Assembly (NCBI GenBank): GCA_034003985.1
Contig: JAVEXP010000003.1
Span: 122,643 to 186,642 of the forward strand
Source of the DNA: Patescibacteria group bacterium
GTDB lineage: Bacteria; Patescibacteriota; Patescibacteriia; Buchananbacterales; UBA6539
Direction: 5' to 3'
Length of the DNA stretch: 64,000 nt
A program made the translations under genes and the position numbers. The notes below the pieces were generated by a model, which did not search any database, was not told the DNA's origin, and saw nothing but the letters and a program-made list of their open reading frames with translations. Position 1 is the first letter of the stretch. The number at the start of each line of letters is the position of its first letter. Positions 15,381 to 31,409 of the stretch are shown here, in pieces.

Positions 15381-16838
15381 TCAAAAATCAAGAAAACACC
15401 CCTCTACCCTATCACGATTTAATGAACCAAGGGCAATTGAGCCAGCAGGCAGCCAAGTCCTCAAACCTGGCAGGTTGCCGGCATCTTTAATCAGCATCGC
15501 GAGGCTAGAAAGATGACAACGAGAGGCGATGTCTGAAACAGTCACCGACGAAGTGGCGTTAAGATAATGCCCAAGCAATTCCCGGGAGCTGGCAAACAGC
15601 AACTTTTGGTCTGAGACGGCATAGGCAATATTAAAATCCAGCTCGGGGACAGACAGATAATCAACCTGGCCGTCAAAATGCCAGACAAGCTCCTGTGGAA
15701 CGGCAAATAATTCAGTTACTAAACTGCCATCCGGTAACTCATAAACTGACTGCTGTGGCAATTTCCAGGACAGCCAAACATTAATCAGCTTCCTTAAGTT
15801 TTTAGGATCATCAGAATCATCCAACCTAGCAACAACAAGATAATTAAAACCAACCGTCGAGGTGTTGGCTTGAGAGAATATCAGCAAATCAGCAGACTCG
15901 CCAAAAGAATCATTTAACAGTTGGCCCAAACTAAGGCCGTAAGCACTCTGTGAAATTTGAGTCAGTTGATTAAAACTAGAAATCATAACTGGATCCAGAC
16001 TGGCGACATTAAAAAATAATTCCGGTAAATTCAATCCTGGAATAAAAACTTGAAAATCCTCGGGAACAGCGATGGCCAGGGTTTGAGTGGTTTTAATATT
16101 ATTCAGTCCCTTAGAAAAAATCTCCAAGCACCATTGATCATTTTTAATGGCTGATGAAAAATAAATATCGGAACCAAGCAACTGCCGATAAATATAATTT
16201 GATTTACTGCCCACTTGATTTAAATAATCAATCAAGCGACGATGATTTAAATAAGCATTAATTGGCGCCAACGGCCGATCAAAATTAAGCTTAGCCTGAG
16301 CCAGGGAAAAAATTTTACCGTCAGCGACTTCTTTAATTTGTTCCAAGGCCGAAGATGAATCGGCACAAACCATAATTCGATCATCAAACAATAAACAAAG
16401 ATTGTCTGCAATAACCTTGGAATCAATCCGATTGCCGGAATCAAGAAAAAATAAATAAGCAGTGGCCAGCTGATCATTCAACGGGAAAACCGCCAAAGCC
16501 GCTTGATTAGAAAAAGCCAAAATTTGGCGATACCATTCCAATCGCTCGGAACCTGAATCTGAATATTTTTGTAGCAATTCAAAATAAGGTGACTGTCCCA
16601 AATTTATCTGACGATCCTGCCAAAAAGTATTGGGATTAGCCTGAACATAAAAAATTGAATCAAGCGGCGCCAATTCAGCCAGCCGATCAGCGGTTAAATA
16701 ATAATAACGATTCAGACTCCAAACTACCAAAATAATCAGACAAAATAAAAGAACCCCACCAACCGCCCAGAACTGCCATGGTCCAAATCGCTGGAAGCGC
16801 TTGGTTTCAGTTTTAGGGCTTTGGAAGGGTTCTTCCAT
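15381..16838 (-). CDS. hypothetical protein, N-terminal TM anchor
   Basis: 485-aa ORF, no recognisable motif. Confidence 0.4.
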   Translation of the reverse strand: MEEPFQSPKTETKRFQRFGPWQFWAVGGVLLFCLIILVVWSLNRYYYLTADRLAELAPLDSIFYVQANPNTFWQDRQINLGQSPYFELLQKYSDSGSERLEWYRQILAFSNQAALAVFPLNDQLATAYLFFLDSGNRIDSKVIADNLCLLFDDRIMVCADSSSALEQIKEVADGKIFSLAQAKLNFDRPLAPINAYLNHRRLIDYLNQVGSKSNYIYRQLLGSDIYFSSAIKNDQWCLEIFSKGLNNIKTTQTLAIAVPEDFQVFIPGLNLPELFFNVASLDPVMISSFNQLTQISQSAYGLSLGQLLNDSFGESADLLIFSQANTSTVGFNYLVVARLDDSDDPKNLRKLINVWLSWKLPQQSVYELPDGSLVTELFAVPQELVWHFDGQVDYLSVPELDFNIAYAVSDQKLLFASSRELLGHYLNATSSVTVSDIASRCHLSSLAMLIKDAGNLPGLRTWLPAGSIALGSLNRDRVEGCFLDF

Positions 16839-16856
16839 TTTCGTATTTGAGTTATT

Positions 16857-19073
16857 TTATCTTCGAGGTTTTTTGAAGAACGGCTTGCGACCATGATCTT
16901 CGTGGCGTCGTTCATAGGGACGGTCTTCATAACCCGCCGGTTTTTCTTTCAATACTTTAAGCGACAAATTAATCCGGCCCTTTTCATCAATCTTAATGAC
17001 TTTAACCGTGACTTCGTCACCGATATTAACAACATCGGTAACGGCATTAACATGTTGCCAGGCCAATTCGGAAATGTGAATCATCCCCTCTTGACCGGGC
17101 AGAATTTCAACCATCGCACCAAAATCAAACAATCGGCTGACTTTGCCGGTAAATACTTCACCGACTTCAACCTCTCGAACAATATTCTTAATCCATTCAA
17201 CCGCAGCATCAGAATCACTACCCGGAACGCCGGTCACCATCACTAGACCGTCTTGTTCAATATCAATTTGAACGCCGGTCTTGTCAATAATTTCATTAAT
17301 GATTTTACCACCCGGGCCGATGACTTCCCGGATTTTTTCCGGATTAATATTAAAGGAAATAATCCGCGGAGCATACTTAGACAATTCTGTTCGCGCCTCG
17401 GGAATAACTTTATCCATCACCTGCAAAATTTCCAGGCGGGCTTTCAGGCCCTGTTCAAAAGTCTGTTTCACAACATCTAAAGGGATGCCCTGGGTTTTGG
17501 TATCAAGCTGAATGGCGGTAATGCCGTCTTTAGTTCCGGCAATTTTGAAATCCATACCGCCTTGACCGTCTTCCAAATCCTGCAGATCGGTTAAAACTTT
17601 ATATTTGCCATTAGTTTCGTCGGAAGCCAAACCCATGGCCACACCGGCGACTGATTTTTTGATTGGCACACCGGCATCCATTAAAGCCAAGCTGGAACCA
17701 CAAACTGACGCCTGGGAAGAAGAACCATTTGAACCCAAAACTTCGGAAACCACCCGAATAGTATAAGGAAATTCTTCTTTGGCGGGAATCAACGGGCGCA
17801 AAGCTTTTTCAGCTAACGCGCCATGACCAATTTCCCGGCGGCCAGGAGAACCAAGCCGACCAGCTTCGCCAACTGAATAAGGAGGAAAATTATAATGATG
17901 CATGTAGCGCTTGCGGCCGCTTTCTTCCAAGCCTTCTAAAAACTGCTCATCACCAGGGGCACCCAAAGTCACAACGGACAAAACCTGGGTCTCGCCGCGA
18001 TTAAAAAGCGCAGAGCCGTGAGTCCGTGGCAATAAGCCGACTTCGACATTAAGCGCTCGAGTCTCGGTTAATTTCCGACCGTCAACCCGGCGATCTTCTT
18101 CCAAGATGGCACGAACAACTTCTTGTTCAACAAACTCATCAAAGATGGGCAGCGCCAACTTGCGGCGTTCTTTGCCAATGTTTTCACCTTCCAAATAAGC
18201 CAACAATTCTTCTTTGCCTCTAGCCAACGCCTGCTTACGCTCGGCCTTGGTTAATAAATTCTTATCAAATAAGACTTGGGGAACATTTTTCTTAATCCAG
18301 TCAGAAGTTTTGGCAACCAACTCTTTATGGGACTCGGGGGTTTCTTCGTCGTCAGCGCTGGCGGCTACCAAAGACTGTAATTCAACTTTGGGTTTGCCAA
18401 CTTCTTTAGCGACTTCATTAATCAACTTAATTACACTATCAATATTCTTTAAAGCATATTCAATTCCCTGATAGGCAATATCTTCACTGACTTCCAAACC
18501 TTCAGCTTCCAGCATCAATAACTTGCCGTCTTTGCCGGCGACGATGAAATCCATGACACTTTGTTCGCGCTGTTCAAAGGTCGGGTTTAAAACCCAAGCA
18601 TCTTCAACCCGGCCAACCCGGACACCGGCCAAAGGACCATTCCAAGGAATATTGGAAATTGCCAAAGCGGCCGAAGCAGCGATCAGACCGACGACATCGG
18701 AATCATTTTCGCTGTCAAAAGACAAAACGGTCAAAATGACCTGGACTTCATTCTTTAAAGTTTCAGGAAAAAGCGGCCGAATAGCCCGATCAACCAAACG
18801 AGAAGTCAAAATCGCCTCGTCAGACGGACGGCCTTCACGCTTAATCCAACGGCTGCCTTTGATTTTTCCAGCCGCATATAATTTTTCTTCGTAATCGACA
18901 GAGAGCGGAAAATAATCCGCACCTTCGCGAATGCCACCCATAACGGCGGTGGCCAAAACGACGGTATCGCCCAAGCGGACGGTACATGAACCGCTGGCCT
19001 GCTGGGCCAAAATGCCGGTTTCAATAATTAATTTCTGACCGGCAAAATCGGTTTCAAAAACTTTTTTGCTCAT
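16857..19073 (-). CDS. pnp: polyribonucleotide nucleotidyltransferase (PNPase)
   Basis: 738 aa, two RNase PH domains plus KH/S1. Preceded by rpsO in classic synteny. Confidence 0.95.
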   Translation of the reverse strand: MSKKVFETDFAGQKLIIETGILAQQASGSCTVRLGDTVVLATAVMGGIREGADYFPLSVDYEEKLYAAGKIKGSRWIKREGRPSDEAILTSRLVDRAIRPLFPETLKNEVQVILTVLSFDSENDSDVVGLIAASAALAISNIPWNGPLAGVRVGRVEDAWVLNPTFEQREQSVMDFIVAGKDGKLLMLEAEGLEVSEDIAYQGIEYALKNIDSVIKLINEVAKEVGKPKVELQSLVAASADDEETPESHKELVAKTSDWIKKNVPQVLFDKNLLTKAERKQALARGKEELLAYLEGENIGKERRKLALPIFDEFVEQEVVRAILEEDRRVDGRKLTETRALNVEVGLLPRTHGSALFNRGETQVLSVVTLGAPGDEQFLEGLEESGRKRYMHHYNFPPYSVGEAGRLGSPGRREIGHGALAEKALRPLIPAKEEFPYTIRVVSEVLGSNGSSSQASVCGSSLALMDAGVPIKKSVAGVAMGLASDETNGKYKVLTDLQDLEDGQGGMDFKIAGTKDGITAIQLDTKTQGIPLDVVKQTFEQGLKARLEILQVMDKVIPEARTELSKYAPRIISFNINPEKIREVIGPGGKIINEIIDKTGVQIDIEQDGLVMVTGVPGSDSDAAVEWIKNIVREVEVGEVFTGKVSRLFDFGAMVEILPGQEGMIHISELAWQHVNAVTDVVNIGDEVTVKVIKIDEKGRINLSLKVLKEKPAGYEDRPYERRHEDHGRKPFFKKPRR

Positions 19074-19189
19074 AACTAATCCTTTTGGGACTGTTTGGCA
19101 GGTTTGACGTTACTAGCACTTACTCACCACTTATTGAAAGTGAAAAGTAGCTACTAACAACGCAACCAATAAACAGTCCGATTATTAAT

Positions 19190-19747
19190 TTATCTTTTAG
19201 TTAATTTTTTAATGTTGGGAATTATCTTATTAATCGCACTCCCTTGAGCGGGAATAAGATATTTCTTCAAATCTTTACCCAAATCAATGAAATCATCAAC
19301 GGCTTCAATCAGCTTGGCGGAAGTGGTTTTACCAAAAGCCAAAACTTCTACCTGGCAACCTTTGTTTTCATGCAAATAAGTAACCATTGGGATATAATCA
19401 CCATCACCGGAAACCAAAATAATACTATCCAGTTTATCGGCCATCTTGATTGCGTCGACAGCAATGCCAACATCCCAGTCGGCTTTTTTGGCGCCGGTGG
19501 CAAAAATTTGCAAATCCTTGGCCTTGACCTCAAACCCCTGATTATCAAGCGCGCCAAAAAATCCGCGCTCTTCGTCGGACTCCGAACGAATAACATAAGC
19601 AATCGCCCTAATCAGTTTACGGTTGGCCACGGCGGTTTTTAAAACTTCTTTGAAGTTGACTTTGGCACCATACAGATTTTTGGCTGAATGGTACATGTTA
19701 GCAACATCGACAAAAACGCCGACACGCTGCTCGCGATGTTTAATCAT
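19190..19747 (-). CDS. NYN-domain (LabA-like) protein
   Basis: 185 aa, VFVDVANMY...SGDGDY motifs. Confidence 0.65.
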   Translation of the reverse strand: MIKHREQRVGVFVDVANMYHSAKNLYGAKVNFKEVLKTAVANRKLIRAIAYVIRSESDEERGFFGALDNQGFEVKAKDLQIFATGAKKADWDVGIAVDAIKMADKLDSIILVSGDGDYIPMVTYLHENKGCQVEVLAFGKTTSAKLIEAVDDFIDLGKDLKKYLIPAQGSAINKIIPNIKKLTKR

Positions 19748-19753
19748 AAAAAA

Positions 19754-20125
19754 TTACTCCTCGGATTTAACTTCCGACTCTTCGGTTTCTTCTTCGGTGG
19801 CGATATCGCCTTCCAGGTCATCCGCCAAATCTTGTTCTTTGGTCTCTTCAACAATCTTAGGAGTTTTGATTTTCAAATCTTTGACCAAAGCTTCGTAGGC
19901 ATTCTGGTCGTCGCGTTTTAAATAATTTAAAAGTCGCCGTCGTTCGGCCACTTTTTTTAATAAACCCCGTCGTGAAGAAAAATCCTTTTTATGGTCTTTT
20001 AAATGTTTAGTTAATTCTTTTATTTCTTCGGTTAAAATCGCAATTTGAACCTGCGATGAACCGGTATCGCTATCGTGAGTCTTGTACTTAGCGATAATTT
20101 TTTCCTTTTTTTTCTTGTCTAACAT
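19754..20125 (-). CDS. rpsO: 30S ribosomal protein S15 with acidic C-terminal extension
   Basis: [50 protein letters not shown]. Confidence 0.85.
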
Positions 20126-20328
20126 GTTGCTTGGCCCTTTACGGCTGCGGTTTCCAAGTTGGGTCTTGGTTAAATTTGGCCTAACCGAGAAGTCGCAGTT
20201 GTTAAATTAGTTAAATCATCCATTACCATATCATAATCAAAACTATTTGTCAATCCATTTAAAATAAAAAAAGTGCCCGCAAAAGCGAGCGAGGTTAACG
20301 GGAGCCAAGGGTGCAGCTTCGTCAAACC

Positions 20329-20592
20329 CTAAAGAACTTCGACCGAACCCACGACCTGGCCCCGATAGAACCACTGCTTCTTCAGGCCATTCCAGGTGAT
20401 GGCGGTATGGGTGGTGTTTTCCACCGTGAGCGACACCAATTCACCGTCGCCATTGGTATTCTTGACAATCAAGGTCCCTCCCGGGGATCGCAGGATCGAA
20501 TGCCCCTCTTCGGCCCTAATAACAAGCCGACTGCCGATTAACGCCTCATGCAGGATTCTGGTGATCTCTTGAGATGACATCTTTTCGGACAT
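20329..20592 (-). CDS. island gene G7, 87-aa hypothetical protein (weak HicA-like GH motif)
   Basis: AGGAGG RBS 7 nt upstream of ATG (MSEKMSSQ...). GC-rich relative to host. Confidence 0.5.
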   Translation of the reverse strand: MSEKMSSQEITRILHEALIGSRLVIRAEEGHSILRSPGGTLIVKNTNGDGELVSLTVENTTHTAITWNGLKKQWFYRGQVVGSVEVL

Positions 20593-20887
20593 GGCTGTAC
20601 CTCCTAAGTTACTGACTGCAGTTAGAAACACTCCGAGAAATTAAATTTATAAGATTTATTAAAAATTGTCAAAATCCTCAAAAAAATCACACCACTATTT
20701 GGTACGAACTAAAAAGCAAAAATACTGATGAAAAAATATAAAGCGCGTTTGGCCAAACATCCTAATTCAATGCCAGGGGGAAAAAGTTAATTTCCTTTTC
20801 TGCCTACCTAAATCACTTCTGGCTAAAAATAATTTTAGACAGAAATGGAGGAGAGAATTTTAGGTAAGCGGAAAAATAAACCATCTT

Positions 20888-20970
20888 CTTTCCTCAAGCT
20901 CCACCAAGTACCATGCCTGACAAGGTTAGTTGGAAGGAGGAACACGCCGCAAAGCTGGTGCTCCTCCATT
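20888..20970 (+). repeat. structured repeat element, copy 1 of a 5-member family (conserved box TTGGAAGGAGGA at 20930-20941)
   Basis: Shares about 45 nt (CCTCAAGC.CCAC.AAGTACCAT..) with copy 5. Covarying hairpin GGAGGAACAC/GTGCTCCTCC ends 8 nt from the G6 stop. Confidence 0.6.
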
Positions 20971-20975
20971 GTCAC

Positions 20976-21347
20976 TTAATCGGGATCCCAACCCCAAGTC
21001 TTATGGGGCTGGCGACTTCCACACCGGACCTCACCAAGAAAAATCCGGCTTTTGTACTTCCTTGGGAAAAAGACCACCTCCATGTGGTCATAACCTGCTG
21101 AGAATATCACTTTTTCTGGGATTTTTTCTACCCAGACCCATGCCAGCGCTGGGTTTTGACCAGAGAGAGGTCCAATATGGTTCATGAAGGATCGCCATTC
21201 GCGATTAAACCCCTCGACACAGTAGTCGGTCAAAACCTGGGTGGGTTCCGGCTTCTCGAAAACCAAGACAAACCCACTCTTTTCAGCCAAAATGGCTTTC
21301 GCCGCGGCGATTGCCTCATCATAGTATCCACCCTCTTCCTTTATCAT
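20976..21347 (-). CDS. island gene G6, 123-aa hypothetical protein
   Basis: AAGGAGAAG RBS 6 nt upstream of ATG (MIKEEGGYYDE...). Confidence 0.5.
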   Translation of the reverse strand: MIKEEGGYYDEAIAAAKAILAEKSGFVLVFEKPEPTQVLTDYCVEGFNREWRSFMNHIGPLSGQNPALAWVWVEKIPEKVIFSAGYDHMEVVFFPRKYKSRIFLGEVRCGSRQPHKTWGWDPD

Positions 21348-21419
21348 GATCTTCTCCTTTCCAAGATTTCGGCGCTACTAGCAGGTGTTCGTTTCCCGCT
21401 TCGCCAGCTCTATATTAAT

Positions 21420-21499
21420 CTTCCAACTAACCTCATCAAACCCTGAGCCCGATGAGATTAGTTGGAAGGAGGAGCACACAGTACCACTGGCACTCCTTC
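21420..21499 (+). repeat. structured repeat element, copy 2
   Basis: Near-perfect 18-bp palindrome CTTCCAACTAACCTCATC-13 nt-GATGAGATTAGTTGGAAG. Then GGAGGAG box and hairpin GAAGGAG/CTCCTTC ending 18 nt from the G5 stop. Confidence 0.6.
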
Positions 21500-21517
21500 G
21501 AGACGGTCACCTAGATC

Positions 21518-22084
21518 TTAAATCTCTGGCAACCGTCGCCAGCCGGGGGGAAACTCGTCTCGGGTATTTTTGTAGAATACCCAACCCGTCCATGTTCCAT
21601 CTTCACGAAGAAGACGAAAATACGGGAAACTGCTTGCACAGTTAAACCCCCCCTGCATTTGTTTTTTTTGCCAGCCTTTATAGCCAGCTGGCGGCTTGGA
21701 TGGGGCAATTCCCTTAAACCGAACACCCCGGTTCAGACAAGCAGCACTGGTGAAAATCACCAAGCCGCTGTCAATATCCAAGCTGCCGGAACCTGGATCA
21801 ACCAAGACAGCTCCTTGAAAATCAGGATGCTTCTTGATAAACTCCGTTGCTCTTGATCGAGCTACCGAGGATCGGCCGGCAAAAAAAACAACCGGCATCC
21901 TCAACAAATTCAACTGCCCATTTTTTATCGGCAGCTGCTGACGGGAGATGACATCCATCTTTCTCCGGTCATCACCCAAAAGATAGGCCAAGCCGGAAAA
22001 GTTGGAAACACTTTCCACCTTACCGTGCCGGCGAAAAACAACACGGATTTCTTCTGCAGCTAAAAAATCTCTGGTGTCCATCAT
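21518..22084 (-). CDS. island gene G5, 188-aa hypothetical protein (possible Rossmann/PRTase-like VLVDPGSGS motif)
   Basis: AAGGAGA RBS. Start at MMDTRDF... Confidence 0.5.
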   Translation of the reverse strand: MMDTRDFLAAEEIRVVFRRHGKVESVSNFSGLAYLLGDDRRKMDVISRQQLPIKNGQLNLLRMPVVFFAGRSSVARSRATEFIKKHPDFQGAVLVDPGSGSLDIDSGLVIFTSAACLNRGVRFKGIAPSKPPAGYKGWQKKQMQGGFNCASSFPYFRLLREDGTWTGWVFYKNTRDEFPPGWRRLPEI

Positions 22085-22195
22085 CAGGGTCTCCTTTTTT
22101 ATTACTTCTCCCAATGAGTCCACCTGCGCTTTACAGACGAACTCAAGAAGGAGCAGTACCGATCAAACCTCGGTCGGCACTGCTGTCAGGAAACA

Positions 22196-22687
22196 TCACC
22201 ACGGACAAGCCGTGGTTTCCGTTCCCGGAATTATCGGCTCACTGCCCCAAACCAGGGCGTGGCCGTCCCAGAATTCCCTCGCTTTCCTTTCCGCTTCCTG
22301 CGGATTGGCTTGTTGAGAAAAAAATCTGGCATCCCACGGCTCCGGTTCGGGGCGTTTACCAACAAAAGCCGTACGGACTTCATACTTGTCATCGCCGATC
22401 TTCTTCAAAACGACGACAACGCTTGAACACGGCTTGGCTTGGCGGTTTTTAACAAACCGAGTTAGGCCCAAACGCTTTGGTCGCCGGGCATACACGATTT
22501 GGTCGCCGGGCTTGGTGGCGACGCAGACCGTCTGCCCGATTTTCCGGCCAAAATCAATTTCCTCAAGAAAAAACTGCCTGCCCAAGGAATCAACTTTTGC
22601 CAATGCCTCGCCAAGCAGCATCTGCACATCGCCATGCAAATGGCTGTCAGTGCGGTCACAGACCGCTTCGCCCGATTTGAGCATCAT
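22196..22687 (-). CDS. island gene G4, 163-aa hypothetical protein
   Basis: GGAGGG RBS 8 nt upstream of ATGATG (MMLKSGEAV...). Promoter/operator just upstream. Confidence 0.5.
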   Translation of the reverse strand: MMLKSGEAVCDRTDSHLHGDVQMLLGEALAKVDSLGRQFFLEEIDFGRKIGQTVCVATKPGDQIVYARRPKRLGLTRFVKNRQAKPCSSVVVVLKKIGDDKYEVRTAFVGKRPEPEPWDARFFSQQANPQEAERKAREFWDGHALVWGSEPIIPGTETTACPW

Positions 22688-22735
22688 TGCTAAAACCCTC
22701 CATGATTGTAATTTCCTCATTTTCCAGACAAATTT

Positions 22736-22758
22736 TCATTAATGAAAATCATTAATGA
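22736..22758. promoter_or_regulatory. tandem operator: two copies of the perfect 10-bp palindrome TCATTAATGA separated by AAA
   Basis: Lies 50-70 nt upstream of the G4 start, within a minus-strand TTGTCT...TACAAT promoter-like region. Flanked by ACAAATT/AATTTGT inverted repeats. Confidence 0.5.
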
Positions 22759-22794
22759 GAGGAGAGACAATTTGTCCAGAAAATGAAAAAACTG

Positions 22795-22868
22795 ATTCCT
22801 GTTTTGCCAGTCAAAATTTCACGGGCAAAATTGGAAGGAGGAGTCGCAAGCACCACTTGGACTCCTCC
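22795..22868 (+). repeat. structured repeat element, copy 3
   Basis: ATTCCTGTTTTGCC-15 nt-GGCAAAATTGGAA palindrome. Then GGAGGAGTC-14 nt-GACTCCTCC hairpin. Confidence 0.55.
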
Positions 22869-23023
22869 GCATTAACCTGATGGTTTATTTTCTGCCCTCA
22901 CATCTTTGGGCCGATATCACTTTGCAACATTTCAGTTGCCGGATTTGCCTATCGCACCGGTCCCAATCATTCAAGATTGGCGCTTCTGTTAAGGCCTGAG
23001 CTTGCCTTTGGTCACCACCAGTG

Positions 23024-24223
23024 CTACTGCACCGCGATGACCAAGCCAAGAGCGATGTCCTGGACATGCGTCCAGGCAATCGTCGCCCCGGCTCCTGGCT
23101 GAAATGTCGCGCAGGCGGCCGCGCGACCGTGGTAGGCCATGGCCAAACTGGCCATCAGCCAGTTCGGGCCGCGGCCCGACAGAACCACGACCGTTCCCAG
23201 CCCGACTTCGGGCGGGACGATCATGTCGAGGGCCGCGGGCGCCAGGGGGACGCTCGGGTCGAGCGCGAACTCAACCCGCACGCACCGGCGCTCGCCCAGC
23301 GCCGGCAGATCGCTGACGGTCCAGCCGCAGCCGGAACCGTCACCCGACGGGCTGGGGCAGCCCACGGCGATGTAGCCGTCGGGCGAGTTCACCCGCGCCG
23401 AGCGCGGGTGAACCTCGTGCACCAGCGCGGCAACGAGCCACGCCGGTGCGGCGCCGTCGATATCCACCACCTCGGGGAAGGTGGCGGACTGATTATGGAG
23501 CAACCCCGCGACACTCGCGAGGTCTACCCCCTCCCAGCAAAGTTGCTGCACAACCTTGCCGTTAGGGAGCGTCCGCTCCACCGCGTTTTTCCCCAGCGCT
23601 GCGGCCAGCGCCGGGATCGAAATTACATTTCCGTTGAGGAGCATACGCCCCTCCTTTCTTTCGTTGCGGCCGAGCTCGGGCCCAGCCAGACTCAAAATCA
23701 ATTCCGCCACGGCGACGATCGCCGGGCGGTCGTTGACACTCACCTCGCCCCGTTCGAGGTGGTGAACCACTCCTTCCAGCCGGGGCACGGTCTGCTGGAT
23801 GGAGTCGGCGGCGCCTTGATAATCACTGTCCAAGACAGCGACCACCTCAACGCCCAGTTGGGCTAGGAACGCCTCCCACTCGGGGACGGCATTCCGATCA
23901 CCCGCGAGAATGATCCCGTGAGTGATCCCTCCCTCCGAAACGATGCGAGCGTTTTCGGAGGAAGTCCGGCCGCCGATATCCACGAGGACAATCGGCGCCA
24001 GACTGCAGGAGGCGAGAGACTGGCAGTACCAGTCAACTATCTCCTGCGAGAAAGACCCTTTACGACGGTGCTTTTCAGCACCATTGCCGCGCCAGGTCCA
24101 GCTCCCTTCCCCGTCCGGGCAGGCCCGGAACAGGTAACGGGAACTTCTTGGCAGGTTCTCGCATAACCCGCCAAGAAATACGGACTTCCCACTGTGGGGA
24201 GGTCCGGCGACAACGATTTTCAT
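23024..24223 (-). CDS. island gene G3, very GC-rich P-loop NTPase (Walker A GPPHSGKS, DIGG Walker B/G3-like) with uncharacterised C-terminal half
   Basis: AAAGGAGG RBS 6 nt upstream of ATG (MKIVVAGPPHSGKSVF...). About 400 codons. Plus-strand ORFs over it are Arg-rich antisense shadows. Confidence 0.6.
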   Translation of the reverse strand: MKIVVAGPPHSGKSVFLGGLCENLPRSSRYLFRACPDGEGSWTWRGNGAEKHRRKGSFSQEIVDWYCQSLASCSLAPIVLVDIGGRTSSENARIVSEGGITHGIILAGDRNAVPEWEAFLAQLGVEVVAVLDSDYQGAADSIQQTVPRLEGVVHHLERGEVSVNDRPAIVAVAELILSLAGPELGRNERKEGRMLLNGNVISIPALAAALGKNAVERTLPNGKVVQQLCWEGVDLASVAGLLHNQSATFPEVVDIDGAAPAWLVAALVHEVHPRSARVNSPDGYIAVGCPSPSGDGSGCGWTVSDLPALGERRCVRVEFALDPSVPLAPAALDMIVPPEVGLGTVVVLSGRGPNWLMASLAMAYHGRAAACATFQPGAGATIAWTHVQDIALGLVIAVQ

Positions 24224-24296
24224 CGCTGCCTCCTTTCTCCCCGATTGGGGAGTTTTTATTTTTATGGAAACCAGCCGCCTCACATCAGCGTCCGGG

Positions 24297-24380
24297 AATT
24301 TCCCTCAGGACTTACCAACAGACAAACATATTGCTGATAAATCCAGTTGGGAGGAGGAACTACTGAACCACAGCCGTTCC
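24297..24380 (+). repeat. structured repeat element, copy 4 (diverged)
   Basis: TTCCCTCAGG...ACCAAC...GTTGGGAGGAGGAAC. Weaker hairpin GGAAC/GTTCC. Confidence 0.4.
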
Positions 24381-24623
24381 CCCAAATAACCAATGGCACC
24401 ACGCGGCGGTGCCACTATCACGATCGATTAACCCCCATCGATCAAAGGAGTATTCAGATTTACTCTCGAAAGAGAGAAGGCCTAACACACAAGGCCTTTT
24501 GCCAATGCTTTTACGCGGATGGCTGCTCTAATTACTAGAGCTTTACCGCAACTCGGATAATTTAATACCCGAGGCTATGATGGTACAAACCGCAAATACT
24601 TACACACGGTTTGTACCCCCCCA

Positions 24624-24833
24624 TCAAGGTCCCTCGATCAGTCGGCGAACCGACCGCTCAAGGGATCTTTTGATCCCCCACGAGATTTGGGCCCCCAGCA
24701 GGGAGCCCGCCTGGCAGGATACCTCAATATCGATTGGACCATCGAGGTATTCAATGGCGGCCAAAGCCGCCGGCAAGTCCTTCTTGTCGACGGCGGCTGT
24801 AAGCCGCCGAAATCCTTCTAACAATTCATCCAT
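24624..24833 (-). CDS. island gene G2, 69-aa hypothetical protein
   Basis: AAGGAGGA RBS 6 nt upstream of ATG. Followed 10 nt after its stop by a perfect 11-bp hairpin. Confidence 0.45.
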   Translation of the reverse strand: MDELLEGFRRLTAAVDKKDLPAALAAIEYLDGPIDIEVSCQAGSLLGAQISWGIKRSLERSVRRLIEGP

Positions 24834-24926
24834 GGCGTCCTCCTTTCATAGAGTTTCGGCTCGCCACGAGCCGCCCCCTAGGGGAAATTTCTTCTTTTCC
24901 CGCGCCGCACATTGGCTCGAGATTTT

Positions 24927-25001
24927 TTCCCTCAAGCCCCACAAGTACCATACTTGTGAAGCTAATTGGAAGGAGAAGCCGACAAAGCAGTCGGCTTCTC
25001 C
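24927..25001 (+). repeat. structured repeat element, copy 5
   Basis: TTCCCTCAAGCCCCACAAGTACCAT. Then CACAAGTA/TACTTGTG hairpin, TTGGAAGGAG box, and 12-bp hairpin GGAGAAGCCGAC/GTCGGCTTCTCC ending 8 nt from the G1 stop. Confidence 0.6.
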
Positions 25002-25009
25002 GTTATTAA

Positions 25010-25273
25010 TTAGTCGTACTTAACAACTGTTTCCATCTCTTCCGTATTTCTCGACTGACAATTCGGGCACATCGGCTTAAGTATTTTATGCGTCAGTTCC
25101 CCGCCGCAGTCGTCGCATTTGCCAACGGCATTTTCATCAAAGCCATCTCGGGGCAAAGCTTTTATTTTATCGCAATCAAGGCAATGATAATTATAGAATA
25201 AGGCACCATCGCCCAAATTGGACCTAAATTCATTTTGGCAATCATTGCACTTGCACATCACAATAATACCCAT
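25010..25273 (-). CDS. island gene G1, double zinc-ribbon small protein (four CxxC pairs)
   Basis: CKCNDC...CLDC...CDDC...CPNC in 87 aa. Confidence 0.55.
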   Translation of the reverse strand: MGIIVMCKCNDCQNEFRSNLGDGALFYNYHCLDCDKIKALPRDGFDENAVGKCDDCGGELTHKILKPMCPNCQSRNTEEMETVVKYD

Positions 25274-26345
25274 ACCTTAAATCATTATTAATTTCTTGTT
25301 TTTTGCTTTCTTAAAATTGTCAAAGTACTTCCTATTTTAGCTCCTCACCAGATGCTCCTAATACCTGGAGTAATTTCATTTCTCTTAAAATTATTTTTTC
25401 TAACTAGGATTGTTCTTTCCGCAAACCGGTGGTTAATCGGCCTACGGAAAACGTCAATCCCAACTAGGTTTGACGCTTGGCCCGGTCCAAAAAATTCAGA
25501 ATCAATACCTCACCCTTTAAGCGAAGCCTGATTAATCAAAAATTCTTAAACCGCTAGCGCTTGCTCATCGCCAAATTTTTGCCAAGTTGAGCATAGTTTG
25601 AAAGTCTATGCTGAAGACTAATTCTCTCCTCAAACATCAGACTTCAATTTAGACTATAATGAACATTTTTTCTCTCTTATTGAGAGAATGCTGCAGAAAA
25701 AGAAATTCTTGGCTTAGCTTTAGGCCTTTTTTTTATTTAGACAATGTTAATTTATGCCAGCCGCGCTTATTTTTTTTACCGCCGACCGCCTGGGCGCTAA
25801 AAACGCTTTTGGCAGTGTGGCATCTCTCCTCTTTCTGCAATATCTTCCCAACAAAAAATCCGCTTTTCGCGGAGAGTTACTTTGCTCATATGACATATGC
25901 TATAAGCTAACAAGTACTCTCTCCACTTAGTACTTCCTATATAATGTAATGTTCGGCTAGTGATTTTAACCACTGTCTCCGACCACCGTCACGGCCGGAT
26001 CACACTGATTACAATCTTTTGGGCTTAAAGAAGATTTACCAAGGTATATCTTTCTCCTCAATTAGCAGACCTTGATTAACCTTTACCTTTTTACTGCCCT
26101 TTTGATTAACCCCTCTTGCTGGTTGTCATTCTCCTCAAATGGCTTCCAGACTTGTTGGGGATGTGTTTTATAGAACCTTTTGTCAGCTTTTAAAACTTCT
26201 TGGTTTTTTAGCTTAACGAGTCATTATAGCATATCTTAAAAATACTGTCAAGTATTTGTGACAATAATTATTCATTAAATTGTATTTTAGCTAAAATAAG
26301 CTAGCTTAGTTTGGTAAATTTAGCTAAATATTTGTCATAAATTCT

Positions 26346-26378
26346 TGACAAAAAATTATAAAAGGTATATAATAATAA
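26346..26378 (+). promoter_or_regulatory. sigma70-like promoter for the TrmB-like regulator
   Basis: TTGACA-17-TATAAT. Confidence 0.5.
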
Positions 26379-26408
26379 TAGATAAATAAACAATTACCAA
26401 CTAATCAT

Positions 26409-27236
26409 ATGTACGAGCAACACCTCAAACAAGCCGGTTTGTCTAAAGAACAGGCGGAAATATATGAGCTGTTAATTAAAAAAGGCCCACAAAAAGCCGG
26501 CAAAATAAGCCAAAAAACCACGCTGAAGCGAGGCTTAGTCTACAAAATTCTTGAACAACTAGTGGATTTTGGCTTGGTTGAGAAAATAGAAAAGGAGGGT
26601 CAAATAGCAACTTTTATTCCGGCCCATCCCCTAAAGCTGAGAGAGCTGGCTCAAAAGCAGGAACAGCAGGCCAAAGACGCCCAGCTGGCCTTGGCTGGAG
26701 TTTTGCCTTCTATTATCTCTGACTTTAATTTGGTTTCAGGCAAGCCGGGCGTCCGATTTTTCGAGGGTGCAAGCGGCTTAAAACAAATTTATGACGATAT
26801 ATTGGCGACTCTGAAAAACAGCGAAACTTTTTATTTAATCCGGGCCGCTTATGAGCCAGTGTATAAAGAAAAAATGATCCCAATTATTGACGATTTTATT
26901 AAAAAAAGAGTGAAAAAAAACATTAATGTCGTCGCCTTAACTCCCGCCGACGAGCTGGCTGAAGAAAAAACAACGAATACCCAGGCGGACCAGGCAATTC
27001 TGTTTGACCGGACCTTGGTTGATAAAAAAAAATACTCCCAGCCGGTGGAAATTGACATATATGGTGATAAAATTGCCATGCTTTCTTTCGGCCAGGAATT
27101 AATCGGCACAATAATAGAAAGTCCCCAGATCTCTGGGGCTTTAAAAGAAATTTTTATTTTAGCTCAAAAAGGCGCCAAACTTAAGCCGCCGCTGGAAGAT
27201 CAAGGGCTTTATGATGGGATCCGTAATGTTCCTTAA
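26409..27236 (+). CDS. TrmB-family transcriptional regulator
   Basis: N-terminal wHTH (LSKEQAEIYELLIKKGPQKAGKISQKT...) with C-terminal TrmB-type effector domain. Confidence 0.7.
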   Translation: MYEQHLKQAGLSKEQAEIYELLIKKGPQKAGKISQKTTLKRGLVYKILEQLVDFGLVEKIEKEGQIATFIPAHPLKLRELAQKQEQQAKDAQLALAGVLPSIISDFNLVSGKPGVRFFEGASGLKQIYDDILATLKNSETFYLIRAAYEPVYKEKMIPIIDDFIKKRVKKNINVVALTPADELAEEKTTNTQADQAILFDRTLVDKKKYSQPVEIDIYGDKIAMLSFGQELIGTIIESPQISGALKEIFILAQKGAKLKPPLEDQGLYDGIRNVP

Positions 27237-29571
27237 TTTTTCGTCGGATAATTCTAACAATTTCAGCAAAAACCTCGGCATCTCCCAATCCTTTACTAAA
27301 TGATTCTCGATTATGATAATATTGGGGATTTTTATTTTTTTGCTCCGCTTCTGTGCTTAAAGCATTACCAATTGAAATAACCCGGCCAACGGTATCCTCA
27401 ACCGAACCGATCTCTAAAGATATTTCCCCTTCTTTTATGGTCGGATCATTGGCAACAATTTTTCCATCTTGTCTTTGTTTGCCTTCACGATCAATTCTTA
27501 AACTTAAAGCCCTTTTCCGGCTATCCGAATCAATATCTAAATCAATTGGTCTATCCGAAAATAAAAAGTTGACTCTGGCTTCACTGTCAAATTCTCTTTG
27601 CTGGTTTCTGTCTGGATAAGCCACACCATATTCGCGAAGCTGAATGGTTAAATAAGAGACTTGGCCATTGTGTTCAACTGAAAAATTGTAGCTTTCAGGC
27701 ACACCCTCTTCCACATTTATTAACTCAAATTGATAACTTTCATTTTCATCCTCTGTTTCTACCAAAGCAATAATTTGATCCAAGGCCAATCGATATTGTT
27801 TCAAAGACTGAATTATTTCTTGACTACTGCCGCTAGCAAGCTGCTTAGTTCTTTCATAAAATCTTGCTTTTGCCTTGCCTTTGCCGGCAATCGCCGCGGC
27901 GGCATATAAAATATCCTTGGCCCGGCGCATTATAGCTTCGGCACATTGAGCCGGAAAATCCTCCCTAAGAGAATCAAATAATTCGCTTGAAGTAAACTCT
28001 TCAGTACTATTTATTGTTTCTGCCAGATGTTTAGCGCTTTTAATTAAACTATTATATTCAGCAAAAATTTCCGCTGCTTCTTCTTCCGGTAGCTTTGTAC
28101 CCATTTCAATAATTATATTTCCAACATTATCACTATATTCACAGGCTAAAAAAGTTCTTAAGCCGTCTAAACCAAATTTTTTGGAAAAAGCAATAACTTG
28201 ATTATAATTTTCTTGATTAATGAAAGCATAAGTGGTTAAAGCGTTTTGCTCTCTCAAAGAAAGATTATGAATACCCAAACCAGCCTGTTCAGTTAGATCA
28301 CGAGATAACTCCTGGAGTTTATTGTATTCCCGAACAGCGTTGAAATCCGCCACCCTTTGGGCATAATCTTCGGGAGTTTCATCCTGCCGCCTTGGACTTA
28401 ATTCAGTAGCGCTGAAAGGAACGGGTTTTGGCGCGTCAGCATCTCTTTTTCCAAAAAATATATCACCTGATTTGGGCTTACGCCCCCGCTTTTTCTCAAA
28501 TTCGGTGATTCTTTTTTGAATCTGTTCAGGATTAGCCGGATGAAAAACATGATTCACTTTTCTCACACCTTTTGTTTCATCAACAATACCATACAAATCT
28601 TCGGCCAACTTAACAAATAATTTTCCCTGAAATTCACTGCCCAAAATATATCTTGGACTAAAAGATTGAATCTGGCCGGCTTCATCTTGCCACCTTGTTT
28701 GAACAGAAACGCCGCCAACCCTGTCTTTAATTTCTCTTTCGCTGCGGATATCTTCCGAAGTTTTGCTCCCTTCACATTGATTAAAATCTTTGGCGGTTAA
28801 CATTCCGCTCTTCTTTAAGTTGGCATATTCCGGCAAATTAATTGCTCTCTTTGGCGCGGCCCAGATGTCAATTTGCCCGCCTGATTTGGTCCGGCCGCGC
28901 GAAGCGACTTTAATGCCACTTACTGCACCACTACCACCAGACCGAATGCCTTTATTAGTTATCCAGTCAGAATTCAAAGGGATAAAATCTTTTGATTCAG
29001 ATGATTTTCTAACCATTAAATGACCGTTTTCGTCCCGATAACCAGCGCCATAATTCGGATGAAATATCCTTAAAGCCAATTCCGCTTCTTCGCCGGAATA
29101 ACCAAATTGCTCCTGATAAAACTGATTGATACTTGACCACCTACCTGGAACTTCCGAAATAGATAAATAAAAATCGGCGTCTTGAATCGCCGTCTTGTCA
29201 AAAGCCTTGTCTTTGGACGGAATATAAAAAAGCGGCTTAGGTTCAATATCGGCTTCACCGCTTTGTTTTCTTTCCCAGTCGGAGCGGGAATAAACCGACT
29301 TGTCTTGAAAATAACTTAATAATTCCTTTTGAAAACTGCTACGACCGGCTTTGCGCGCCGATTCGATATCCGGCAAAGCTCTGATAGCATCAGTTTGTTT
29401 AGAAATTTTATCTAAATCACAAATTACTTCGCCATCTGAGCCAAATTCAAAAAATTTTTCTTTTTCCAAATAATTCGCCAACTTTTCGCACAAAGCCTCA
29501 TCACCATCTTCTCCAGTATCTTCTTGATCGTATTTTTCCAGATTTAAACCATTTTCAAATCCTTGACGCAT
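27181..29571 (-). CDS. large (796 aa) acidic hypothetical protein, no recognised domain
   Basis: Long uninterrupted ORF. 3' end overlaps the convergent TrmB gene by 56 nt. Confidence 0.5.
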   Translation of the reverse strand: MRQGFENGLNLEKYDQEDTGEDGDEALCEKLANYLEKEKFFEFGSDGEVICDLDKISKQTDAIRALPDIESARKAGRSSFQKELLSYFQDKSVYSRSDWERKQSGEADIEPKPLFYIPSKDKAFDKTAIQDADFYLSISEVPGRWSSINQFYQEQFGYSGEEAELALRIFHPNYGAGYRDENGHLMVRKSSESKDFIPLNSDWITNKGIRSGGSGAVSGIKVASRGRTKSGGQIDIWAAPKRAINLPEYANLKKSGMLTAKDFNQCEGSKTSEDIRSEREIKDRVGGVSVQTRWQDEAGQIQSFSPRYILGSEFQGKLFVKLAEDLYGIVDETKGVRKVNHVFHPANPEQIQKRITEFEKKRGRKPKSGDIFFGKRDADAPKPVPFSATELSPRRQDETPEDYAQRVADFNAVREYNKLQELSRDLTEQAGLGIHNLSLREQNALTTYAFINQENYNQVIAFSKKFGLDGLRTFLACEYSDNVGNIIIEMGTKLPEEEAAEIFAEYNSLIKSAKHLAETINSTEEFTSSELFDSLREDFPAQCAEAIMRRAKDILYAAAAIAGKGKAKARFYERTKQLASGSSQEIIQSLKQYRLALDQIIALVETEDENESYQFELINVEEGVPESYNFSVEHNGQVSYLTIQLREYGVAYPDRNQQREFDSEARVNFLFSDRPIDLDIDSDSRKRALSLRIDREGKQRQDGKIVANDPTIKEGEISLEIGSVEDTVGRVISIGNALSTEAEQKNKNPQYYHNRESFSKGLGDAEVFAEIVRIIRRKIKEHYGSHHKALDLPAAA

Positions 29572-29693
29572 AAAAATTTAAGGATAACTAATTTTGATTA
29601 TTAGTTTATATTTTAACATTTTTTTTCTAAAAAGTCAAATTAATAATTAAACCAAGTTGGCAATTTGACCGATGTGTCGTAAAATAGAATCAT

Positions 29694-30608
29694 ATGAATA
29701 AATTAATCAACCAATTTTTAGAATACCTGGAAATCGAAAAAGGCCGAAGCCTGAACACGGTTCAGAATTATCATTTTTATCTCAACCGTTTTGCCGAGTG
29801 GTCAAAAATAAAAAAGCCTGAGCAGATAAATCAAGATTTGGTCAGGAGCTATCGTATTTGGCTCAACCGTCAAACTGACAACCGAGGTGAAGTCCTGGAA
29901 AAATCAACCCAAAATTATCACCTGATTGCCCTAAGATCATTTTTAAAATATTTGTCCAAGATTGATGTCAACTCAATGGCACCGGAAAAAATTGAACTGG
30001 CCAAAATGCCGCAACGCCAAGTTGATTTTTTGGAAGGCCCTGACTTGGAAAGATTATTAGAAGCACCGCTGAAAAGCGCGGAACCAGAAATCATTAAGCT
30101 ACGCGACAAGGCGATTTTGGAATTATTATTTTCAACCGGCTTGCGGGTCTCGGAACTTTCCAAACTCAACCAAGACCAAATCAATTTAGCCAAAGAAGAA
30201 TTTACCGTCCGTGGCAAAGGCAGCAAATTACGGGTGGTTTTTTTGTCTAATCAGGCCAAACATTGGCTAAAGCAATATTTGGAAAAAAGAAAGGATCTAT
30301 CCCCCAGCCTATTTGTCCGTCACGACCGGGCCAAGGGTAAAAAAGAAGCAGAAAATCTAACACCCCGAAGCATTCAGCGGCTGATTAAAAAGTATGCCAA
30401 AGAAGCTGGGATTGCCAAAGACATCACACCCCACACCATGCGCCACAGTTTTGCAACAGATCTGCTGATTAATGGCGCCGACATTCGTTCCGTCCAATCA
30501 ATGCTGGGACATTCCTCAATTACCACCACCCAAATTTACACTCACTTAACAGATCACCAGCTGCGTGAAGTTTATAAAACTTTCCACCAACGCCAAAGAC
30601 GCAAGTAA
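29694..30608 (+). CDS. tyrosine recombinase, XerC/XerD family
   Basis: R..HxxR..Y catalytic signature: HTMRHSFATDLL...LGHSSITTTQIYTHL. Confidence 0.8.
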   Translation: MNKLINQFLEYLEIEKGRSLNTVQNYHFYLNRFAEWSKIKKPEQINQDLVRSYRIWLNRQTDNRGEVLEKSTQNYHLIALRSFLKYLSKIDVNSMAPEKIELAKMPQRQVDFLEGPDLERLLEAPLKSAEPEIIKLRDKAILELLFSTGLRVSELSKLNQDQINLAKEEFTVRGKGSKLRVVFLSNQAKHWLKQYLEKRKDLSPSLFVRHDRAKGKKEAENLTPRSIQRLIKKYAKEAGIAKDITPHTMRHSFATDLLINGADIRSVQSMLGHSSITTTQIYTHLTDHQLREVYKTFHQRQRRK

Positions 30609-30656
30609 TAATTGACTTTTAACAAAATTTCGGCTATAATCATTTTGTTTTATTAC

Positions 30657-30731
30657 GCCCCTGTAGTTCAACGGATAGAACGAGGGCCTTCTAAGCCTTA
30701 GATCAAGGTTCGATTCCTTGCGGGGGCACCA
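30657..30731 (+). tRNA. tRNA-Arg (anticodon TCT)
   Basis: Cloverleaf folds. Anticodon loop CTTCTAA. Encoded CCA. Confidence 0.8.
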
Positions 30732-30755
30732 GAAAAGTTTAACCCCTGATTATAA

Positions 30756-30830
30756 GCCCCCTTAGTTCAACGGATAGAATGTGGGCTTCCGGAGCCTAAG
30801 ATGTAGGTTCGATTCCTACAGGGGGCACCA
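30756..30830 (+). tRNA. tRNA-Arg (anticodon CCG)
   Basis: Anticodon loop TTCCGGA. T-arm GTAGG-TTCGATT-CCTAC. CCA encoded. Confidence 0.75.
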
Positions 30831-30846
30831 GTAGAAAATTAAATAT

Positions 30847-30922
30847 GGTGGCCTTGGTGAAACGGTTATCACGCGAGTTTGTGGCACTCGCATTACGGGT
30901 TCGATTCCCGTAGGCCACCCCA
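30847..30922 (+). tRNA. tRNA-His (anticodon GTG) with G-1
   Basis: Anticodon loop TTGTGGC. Extra 5' G pairs with discriminator C. CCA encoded. Confidence 0.8.
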
Positions 30923-31019
30923 AAAAAATATCTCCCCTTAATTGGGGAGGTATTTTTTGTTATAATAAATGTATAAAAAATAAATATTTCAAATAATAAA
31001 TAATTAACCAGAGCTAGTT

Positions 31020-31409
31020 ATGAAAGGATTCATAATCAACTTAGAAAAAGAAACCCTGGAAAATCAAAATTACCGCCAGGTGCTGTACACTTCACACCAT
31101 AGTCAGCTGGTATTAATGAGCCTGAAACCAGGCGAAGAAATCGGCGAAGAGGTTCATGATTTAGACCAATTTATCAGGCTGGAACAAGGCCGCGCTAAAG
31201 TTATTTTGGACGGAGTGGAAACTGAAATGACCAAAGACTGGGCGGTGGTTATTCCGGCCGGCGCCCGCCACAATGTCATCAACACTTCCAGCGACGAGGA
31301 ATTAAAGCTTTATTCCGTCTATTCCCCGCCGGAACACAAAGACGGAACCACTCACCAAACCAAGGCCGATGAAAAAGAAGAGCATTTTGACGGCCACACT
31401 ACTGAGTAG
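31020..31409 (+). CDS. cupin-domain protein
   Basis: 129 aa, cupin His/Glu motif region (GEEIGEEVHDLDQ...HNVINTS). Confidence 0.6.
   Translation: MKGFIINLEKETLENQNYRQVLYTSHHSQLVLMSLKPGEEIGEEVHDLDQFIRLEQGRAKVILDGVETEMTKDWAVVIPAGARHNVINTSSDEELKLYSVYSPPEHKDGTTHQTKADEKEEHFDGHTTE

Follow-up and report, generated by a model that had tools for sequence, protein, structure and literature searches.

This analysis concerns an island of seven short genes (G1-G7) on the minus strand of a 64-kb stretch of DNA (the window), which was taken from a 195,734-bp contig of a metagenome-assembled Patescibacteria group bacterium, a member of the candidate phyla radiation (CPR). The island, at 20262-25300, sits between rpsO and a gene for a TrmB-family regulator. 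We interpret it, with a probability of about 0.6, as a variable hotspot for laterally supplied accessory genes in which paired hairpins, here called dumbbells, punctuate the message at the RNA level. Lateral acquisition of the island is well supported. It is argued for by base composition, codon usage, Shine-Dalgarno (SD) sites in a host that lacks them, orphan genes and others whose relatives are far-flung, and related islands in other Patescibacteria show a contrast of this kind as well.

A preliminary description of this DNA had called the island compositionally foreign, and computation of guanine plus cytosine (GC) content, tetranucleotide distance and codon usage bore this out, with no uniformity between island and flanks. 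GC content is 0.523 at 20262-25300 and 0.419 in the remaining window, and peaks at 0.705-0.710 at 23000-23599 (400-nucleotide (nt) window). The tetranucleotide distance between the island and the remaining window (0.0327) is the strongest outlier; the 47 non-island 5-kb windows gave 0.0132 +/- 0.0025, with a maximum of 0.0212. Relative synonymous codon usage correlated with that of host genes at 0.19-0.64 for the island genes; host genes themselves averaged 0.72. The edges were less exact than first described. GC does rise by a smaller amount near 20200-20600, over G7, but the sharp rise comes at ~21000 instead of 20262, and the right GC edge, placed earlier near 25300, was computed at ~25000. 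G1 and a 1.1-kb AT-rich leader reaching up to a promoter at 26251 are probably also part of the island unit.

All seven predicted minus-strand open reading frames (ORFs) were present. The GenBank tags RB292_03720-03745 correspond to the island genes and name hypothetical proteins, except for Csx3. The genes, with lengths in amino acids (aa) and with GC3 denoting GC at third codon positions, are as follows.

25010-25273, minus strand: G1, an 87-aa double zinc ribbon (Zn_ribbon_8 at 3e-6 and Zn_ribbon_6 at 6e-5, both below the Pfam cut-offs), GC 0.42.
24624-24833, minus strand: G2, a candidate coding ORF of 69 aa with the SD site AAAGGAGG, GC 0.57.
23024-24223, minus strand: G3, 399 aa, matching a SIMIBI-type P-loop nucleoside triphosphatase (NTPase) with a middle Csx3-like domain and a C-terminal Csx3 domain, GC 0.65, GC3 0.77 (the highest).
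22196-22687, minus strand: G4, 163 aa (174 aa from an ATG at 22720), from a large uncharacterised family found in jumbo phages too, GC 0.55.
21518-22084, minus strand: G5, a 188-aa orphan that matched only itself among 5.8 billion proteins, GC 0.49.
20976-21347, minus strand: G6, a 123-aa orphan whose sole match is a 97% twin from a second strain, GC 0.50.
20275-20672, minus strand: the G7 transcription unit, with a promoter (20672-20644), an 87-aa ORF (20329-20592) and a terminator (20290-20275), GC 0.53.

SD sites had been ascribed to all seven ORFs. Six carry AGGAGG-type sites 5-9 nt from the ATG, while G1 has only AAGG. The host genes indeed lack such sites, since an AGGAGG match of at least 5/6 within 22 nt upstream was found for 1/46 host ORFs. 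G1 may be older or resident because its GC content and SD are host-like.

The flanks of the island are housekeeping genes, namely pnp (16857-19073), a NYN-domain gene (19190-19747) and rpsO (19754-20125), and three tRNA genes are among the window flanks. Where base composition and translation signals change so abruptly in a metagenome-assembled genome (MAG), an assembly chimera could be the cause, with a fragment of a GC-rich organism joined into a CPR contig. However, an independent Logan contig (SRR25572339) is 100% identical to the window over 18,057 bp (16167-34223) and spans both borders. A second assembly, GCA_030154545.1, from a ~98% identical strain, has the G7-rpsO-NYN segment on one contig (locus L340, 98.6% identity) and the end of G5, then U5, G6 and U6 (U denotes a dumbbell unit) on a separate contig at 98.0%. 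There are also AT-rich stretches with host-type promoters inside the island. Because independently built assemblies agree across the borders and within the island, a chimera is effectively refuted, and we regard it as wildly improbable.

A search with PNPase against 185,579 species-representative genomes returned a best match of 64% identity, followed by Buchananbacteria at 60%, and thus no close relative. The 64% relative is not syntenic and so offers no empty site. Direct repeats of the form TTnCCAAGTTGrG, at 20151 and 25579, might be taken for att-like borders, but we rejected them as probably due to chance because the left copy lies inside the rpsO leader hairpin.

A dumbbell unit follows each of G1-G6, so the claim that one repeat family separates the ORFs was upheld: each of these gene boundaries has a single unit, making six in total, all within the island. 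Read on the coding strand, a unit is ~75-85 nt long and consists of a hairpin H1, a pyrimidine tract (CTCCTCCTTCC) and a hairpin H2. H1 has the base GGAGGAG...CTCCTCC and a variable top. H2 opens with TTCC(AAY), has a variable top and closes with a purine-rich arm (GGAA, GTTGGAAG, TTGAGGRAA or TTGGGAGAAG). The units, with folding energies for RNA, are listed below.

24927-25001, minus strand: U1 (H1 25001-24972, H2 24971-24927), -47.1 kcal/mol, z -8.6, antisense -39.9.
24301-24383, minus strand: U2 (H1 24383-24353, H2 24352-24301), sense -40.9 and antisense -22.0 kcal/mol, z -5.9; it lies in a highly structured 400-nt spacer upstream of G3.
22796-22868, minus strand: U3 (H1 22868-22837, H2 22836-22796), -36.9 kcal/mol, z -5.9.
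22108-22184, minus strand: U4, following G4, with the degenerate core TGCTCCTTCTTGAG, sense -38.4 and antisense -28.4 kcal/mol, z -4.5.
21420-21497, minus strand: U5, sense -47.4 and antisense -33.5 kcal/mol, z -8.2; its H2 is a near-perfect 17-bp palindrome (TTCCAACTAATCTCATC/GATGAGGTTAGTTGGAA).
20889-20967, minus strand: U6, with H1 intact and H2 decayed, z -1.1.

The hairpins had been placed 8-18 nt after stop codons. This holds for G1, G4, G5 and G6, but the unit begins ~155 nt after G3 and ~240 nt after G2. The core GTTGGAAGGAGGA (at most 2 mismatches) occurs six times in the window, five of them in the island on one strand, where 1.4 matches were expected window-wide. A structural scanner run over both strands (128 kb) found 4 strict units, all on the minus strand of the island, and none in the other ~123 kb; U4 and U5 were identified by eye. 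The same scanner returned 32 mostly loose matches in 2.64 Mb of control loci.

The z scores of U1-U5 range from -4.5 to -8.6. In RNA the sense strand is the more stable in 6/6 units, by 1.2-18.9 kcal/mol (mean ~9), the coding strand folding better than its complement because of G-U pairs; with DNA parameters this holds for 5/6. The dumbbells are not classical terminators because they lack U-tracts, and a terminator scan of the minus strand called no H1 or H2 of U1-U6. Within the island unit the scan recognised two canonical terminators only, one behind G7 (20290-20275) and the other in the leader (25873-25859). Rfam searches of the window (at the gathering threshold) and of 20000-26500 (E up to 5) returned only tRNAs and microRNA-type noise, and viral contigs gave only single chance matches to the repeat core. 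A metagenome scan for GGAG-N12-24-TCCTCCTTCCAAYTW was uninformative: it matched at least 115 loci, once each, and both hairpins were present in 1/115 of those listed. A MAFFT alignment of U1-U6 was out of structural register.

Long AT-rich hairpins were also seen on the minus strand downstream of U3 (22712-22791) and U6 (20778-20893). Both have TCTCTCCTC, the complement of the leader motif GAGGAGAGA, in the loop, and they are the sole, weak matches in the window to the covariance model R1 described below.

The right-hand side of the island unit contains the following features.

26223-26251, minus strand: the island promoter, a consensus sigma-70 promoter (TTGACA-17-TGcTATAAT) that points into the island and has a 12/12 hexamer match and a TG extension.
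25855-26216, minus strand: an AT-rich leader or candidate ~360-nt non-coding RNA that ends at an intrinsic terminator (25859-25873), fold z = -3.3.
26345-26373, plus strand: the trmB promoter, divergent from the island promoter.
26409-27236, plus strand: the TrmB-family regulator gene (Pfam TrmB 9e-12), of host-like composition and divergent from the island promoter.

The segment 26261-26200 aligns with the region upstream of a Csx3 homologue in another locus, L007 (76% over 62 nt), and consensus-type promoters stand at the equivalent position in L335, L338, L003 and L005. The leader contains no minus-strand ORF of at least 60 aa, no Logan gene call and no Rfam match, and an alignment of the leaders of four loci gave no consensus structure. 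A ~25-nt motif, AAGTCTG-N5-6-TTGAGGAGA, is present in three copies on the minus strand (26130-26160, 26053-26085 and 25625-25657). Their TTGAGGAGA parts are at 26130-26138, 26053-26061 and 25625-25633, the first two of them inside 25855-26216. The motif TTGAGGRRA is common to the leader and the unit ends, with 6/7 of its window matches within 20889-26138 on the minus strand. Two side observations concern this region. The 1.1 kb at 25274-26408 has no called gene, which is unusual in a compact CPR genome. The same GAGGAGAGAG-type purine motif recurs in L007, L335, L338 and L003, where it follows the equivalent promoter by 40-160 nt, too close to any ATG for an SD role.

The related loci are the contexts of G3 homologues, for example L003, L004-6 (three Moraniibacteriota assemblies), L007, L335 and L336. 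They reveal a recurrent layout in Patescibacteria, comprising trmB (in three lineages), a strong promoter, an AT-rich leader and variable GC-rich genes that bear SD sites. The Csx3 gene is elevated in GC relative to AT-rich hosts in L004-6, L335, L007, L003 and L336 (e.g., 0.47 vs 0.33 and 0.58 vs 0.37). A promoter of the form TTGACA-17-TGnTATAMT precedes it in these loci, and the downstream genes differ each time. The neighbours include a DEAD helicase with a methyltransferase, an AAA protein with an unknown protein, an AAA_28 protein with an acetyltransferase, and MNT-HEPN. L335 resembles the window in that its island genes have SD sites and its host genes do not. L332-334 belong to a 60%-GC organism with an SD site on every gene, and a lineage of this kind could be a donor of such genes.

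A TrmB gene is divergent and upstream in the window, L004-6 and L335, and also at an island without Csx3, L338; outside the window, it thus adjoins Csx3 or G4-type islands in three lineages (L004-6, L335, L338). The TrmB protein of the window is 43% identical to that of L335 and 52% identical over a 44-aa fragment to that of L338; the other fetched TrmB genes gave 24-32%. L338 has two copies of a G4 homologue, the same divergent promoter pair and, within the leader, the TTGAGGAGA motif.

Units of this two-hairpin design are also found behind SD-bearing GC-rich genes in L003, L005, L007, L335 and L338/9. In an alignment of four H2 sequences (L003, L005, L007 and L335), 10/20 pairs were compensatory and there were several G-U pairs besides. 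R1, which was built from the units of these four loci, found more copies in L336, L003 and L338. Rfam identified only tRNAs in seven related loci.

Several features of the relatives were noted in passing. In L338 (on a contig shared with L337) there are two copies (6001-7074 and 8545-9626) of a segment comprising the G4 homologue (57% identical), the dumbbell after it and a small ORF downstream. Each copy adjoins an AAA_14/DUF4143 gene (4455-5798, minus strand; 7311-8438, plus strand), and AbiEii and RecQ-like genes follow. A palindrome, CCCTCTCCT(A/T)AGGTAGGAGAGGG, lies at 5370-5400 and 5740-5770 in L335 and at 4360-4385 in L338, with flanks common to the two CPR contigs; in L338 it is in the loop of a dumbbell unit, and it looks like a mobile element of the repetitive extragenic palindromic (REP) type. 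A conserved and highly structured sequence of ~250 nt, maybe an RNA element, is found downstream of Csx3 in L003 (4560-4830) and L336 (1810-2110), whose contigs are otherwise different; the 5' leaders are also conserved between these two loci.

G3 is the island gene with the clearest affiliation. It had been described as a P-loop NTPase, which is correct as far as it goes, but the protein is an NTPase-Csx3 fusion. The earlier statement that nothing in the island could be assigned to a described architecture was accordingly too strong. By profile comparison, G3 is a full-length member of the AAA-Csx3 (C3a67) family, a type III CRISPR accessory: residues 3-393 matched positions 7-374 of the 382 in PADLOC profile PDLC01059 with an E-value of 6.5e-36. 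Further profile matches were Csx3-AAA (6.7e-47) and Pfam Cas_csx3 (1.9e-16), and there were 406 detectable homologues, many labelled Csx3 at source. An AlphaFold model based on 40 homologues had a predicted local distance difference test score (pLDDT) of 90. Despite the family name, the NTPase domain looks MinD/ParA-like (SIMIBI class). G3 appears to hold two tandem Csx3-like domains, which fits because Pfam reports two Csx3 stretches. The similarity between the middle and C-terminal domains is weak (44% over 25 residues, pairwise E 2e-4).

The C-terminal domain has the Csx3 fold and retains the SGRGP loop, which includes S44-G45-R46, the contact loop for cyclic tetra-adenylate (cA4). When residues were mapped onto AfCsx3, using one stretch of the AfCsx3 sequence with its ends excluded, the equivalents of H60 (H365) and H80 (H386) were retained. 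D69 of Crn3 is replaced by Q375 and R71 by G377, two residues that vary little or not at all across 40 homologues, and H57 is replaced by M. The middle domain retains HxxH (H269, H272) without an equivalent of D69. Mutation of AfCsx3 abolishes activity in the D69A and H60A variants and strongly impairs it in R71A (PMC7371418). With D69 and R71 both replaced, G3 is not taken as a proven ring nuclease, and its residues suggest that it may be a sensor rather than a cleaver of cA4. Scans of the window and its ORFs found no CRISPR array or cas gene.

Among the other island proteins, G4 belongs to a family of 909 representative clusters without annotation. It matched phrog_23674 (3.7e-22), a family of unknown function, and homologues 34-45% identical occur in 20 phage records, mostly of jumbo phages. 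Its predicted model (pLDDT 96.8) had no Foldseek match in the PDB and bears a weak resemblance to the RelE/CdiA-CT-like (BECR) fold. The other six proteins had no PHROG match, and G2, G5 and G7 matched no family in the profile searches. G2 is missing from the MAG GenBank annotation and from the Logan calls, which have a 147-aa ORF on the opposite strand instead; JGI and ENA call G2. G7 (GC3 0.68, SD TAGGAGG) marks where the island ends on the left, next to the rpsO promoter.

Two further genes of the window were noted. Next to the TrmB gene, 27181-29571 on the minus strand is a 796-aa ORF of host-like composition labelled as a HigA antitoxin by JGI; it lacked homologues in the fetched loci, and Pfam, NCBIfam and PHROGs gave no match. 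A second foreign-looking gene, at 38236-39620 on the plus strand, is a xylose-isomerase-like TIM-barrel ORF (GC 0.57, GC3 0.72) with a perfect AAGGAGG SD site and its own canonical terminator. It lies between genes for a major facilitator superfamily transporter and a glycosyltransferase and has no dumbbell units.

In the hotspot reading, the island would be transcribed from the promoter at 26251, with TrmB control probable, and a second promoter would drive G7. In the mRNA the dumbbells would serve as intercistronic punctuation, acting in 3'-end protection, as processing sites or in translational insulation. They may double as homology for the addition or swapping of genes, since they are the only sequence common to otherwise unrelated genes. 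The Csx3 domains of G3 would bind cyclic oligoadenylate and be coupled to its NTPase, and G4 may be an RNase-like effector.

Several observations weigh against this interpretation. The island genes range in GC from 0.42 to 0.65, a spread that fits piecemeal assembly better than the transfer of a single operon and leaves room for a dedicated recombination mechanism. The RNA-level role of the dumbbells is argued solely from strand asymmetry and position. R1 does not detect U1-U6, its best window matches being the other hairpins at ~14 bits (E ~3), so the link between these units and those of the relatives is one of architecture and not of sequence. The repeat sequence family of the window was seen only in the source organism and the 98%-identical strain, and its core was not found elsewhere among the metagenome matches listed, which do not include the source contig either. 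With TrmB genes so common in CPR genomes, some of the adjacency may be coincidental, and the Csx3 contexts of L003 and L007 have no TrmB gene.

The preliminary description had called the region a horizontally acquired cassette-type one. Horizontal acquisition stands, and "cassette" holds as a description, but in the integron sense it failed when examined by hand. An integron-like or other site-specific cassette array would make each gene independently mobile. The dumbbell, or its TTGAGGRAA / GTTGGAA end, would then be the recombination site, the TTGAGGAGA leader an attI-like site, and a Xer-like or host Xer protein the enzyme. Much of the layout suits such an array: the short same-strand genes, each of G1-G6 with a repeat behind it, have unrelated histories and GC contents of 0.42-0.65 and share one repeat family with a variable middle that conserves structure; TTGAGGRRA is clustered in the leader and at the 3' ends of the units; gene sets differ between related platforms; and in L338 one H2 follows different genes, with a different H1 each time. 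A gene for a 304-aa Xer-like tyrosine recombinase is also present at 29694-30608, divergent to the array, but it is 4.4 kb from G1 and behind two unrelated genes. The recombinase scored 255 bits for XerD, 251 for XerC and 247 for XerA (cut-off 220), and fell below the cut-offs of the integron integrase models TIGR02249 (136.8 bits, cut-off 265) and NF011946 (84.7 bits, cut-off 435). Strict attC cores (RYYYAAC...GTTRRRY) coincided with 0/6 units, only U5 fitting the relaxed form YYYAAC...GTTRRR, and folding favoured the ORF strand in 6/6, opposite to the bottom-strand fold of attC. Gene calls in the 12-15 kb of DNA around L335, L337 and L338 included no recombinase, and no two arrays were found to share a cassette in different neighbourhoods. 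Because the recombinase is Xer-like, strict attC cores are lacking, the strand preference is reversed and no recombinase was called near these relatives, integron membership of the island is not supported by these comparisons, and we consider a site-specific cassette array of any kind unlikely. There is a similarly small chance that the locus is an undescribed gene-capture platform made up of TrmB, the divergent promoter, the TTGAGGAGA leader and an array of singly inserted SD-bearing genes. Each cassette would bring H1 and H2 halves, and the dumbbell would be the joint between them, giving an analogue of the integron with another site architecture and no IntI.

The repeats might instead be selfish palindromes (REP elements, miniature inverted-repeat transposable elements or palindrome-associated transposable elements), or tandem-hairpin terminators of a donor that were carried in with a whole operon. 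Hairpin pairs without a U-tract are reminiscent of the I- and V-shaped terminators that GC-rich bacteria have. The palindrome CCCTCTCCTAAGGTAGGAGAGGG, common to L335 and L338 and located inside a unit in L338, indicates that mobile palindromes exist in these genomes, and a weak Y1-transposase match lies near the Moraniibacteriota island. Selfish repeats would be hard to reconcile with the placing of the units, one at each gene boundary and none on either strand of the remaining 59 kb of the window, and no transposase gene was found in the window. Independent terminators of a donor would not be expected to share one core among genes of very different GC content, as these do. Neither origin seems at all probable to us. 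Another doubtful source of the island is a phage, or some other mobile element, that carried counter-defence genes and left a remnant; in this case Csx3 would act against type III CRISPR by degrading cA4, beside a jumbo-phage-like G4. Viruses do deploy ring nucleases such as AcrIII-1 against type III CRISPR (bioRxiv 10.1101/2024.09.24.614671), G4 has the phage homologues described above, and the window is free of CRISPR and cas genes. Yet blastn found no DNA match to the island in 50,697 phage records, and none was found in 72,556 plasmids. The island has no phage structural, replication or integration gene, nothing comparable was seen in viral contigs, G4 alone matched a PHROG, and replacement of D69 and R71 makes fast cleavage of cA4 doubtful. 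We think such a remnant quite improbable.

Horizontally acquired accessory islands are already known, as is the family of G3. As far as our searches of Rfam, PADLOC, Pfam and the literature show, three things are undescribed: the paired-hairpin punctuation, the TrmB-promoter platform in Patescibacteria, and the contrast of SD-bearing genes in an SD-less host. Patescibacteria have tiny genomes with few recognised mobile elements or defence systems, and little is known of how they acquire foreign genes and express them. In this locus and its relatives, GC-rich genes bring their own ribosome binding sites into hosts that use none, at a recurring place beside trmB. Dumbbells that act as recombination joints would represent a new gene-capture system, and dumbbells that act as RNA elements would form a new class of structured RNA motif tied to horizontally acquired genes. 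G3 places the AAA-Csx3 family outside a CRISPR context with two residues needed by stand-alone Crn3 replaced. The literature assigns no function to the fused ATPase of AAA-Csx3, and a testable idea is that the Csx3 domains serve a MinD/ParA-like NTPase as sensors of cyclic oligoadenylate.

Compared with known systems, G3 departs from the AAA-Csx3 and Crn3 proteins in several respects. These are type III CRISPR accessories, whereas the G3 locus has no CRISPR array or cas gene within 64 kb. Stand-alone Crn3 has D69, R71 and H57 where the C-terminal domain of G3 has Q, G and M. The family name implies AAA, but the NTPase of G3 resembles MinD/ParA and not AAA+, and a second, divergent Csx3-like domain precedes the C-terminal one.

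The dumbbells are comparable to the intercistronic stem-loops of REP elements and bacterial interspersed mosaic elements (BIMEs) in being stable, located just after stop codons, on the sense strand and without a U-tract. REP/BIME elements are dispersed, whereas the dumbbells are confined to one island within the window. The dumbbells also differ in their paired hairpins and in a purine/pyrimidine/purine layout that resembles an SD-antiSD duplex, and they are absent from Rfam 15.

Integron arrays and clusters of attC sites lacking integrases (CALINs) share with the island a series of short, unrelated same-strand genes and structured repeats with conserved ends and a variable middle. As in integrons, a strong promoter precedes the series and the head gene is divergent, although this gene is IntI in integrons and a TrmB regulator here. 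Dumbbells differ from attC sites in having two hairpins around a pyrimidine tract, a favoured coding strand and no strict cores. Most island genes also have their own strong SD site, and G7 has its own promoter and terminator.

Set against variable genomic or defence islands at conserved hotspots, the present island differs in that no integrase, tRNA target or direct-repeat borders were identified in the window, and in that only one of its genes is from a defence-related family. It shares with such islands the combination of a conserved flanking gene and promoter with variable content and foreign composition, and its relatives carry toxin-antitoxin and Abi-type genes, namely HicAB, ParE, MNT-HEPN and AbiEii.

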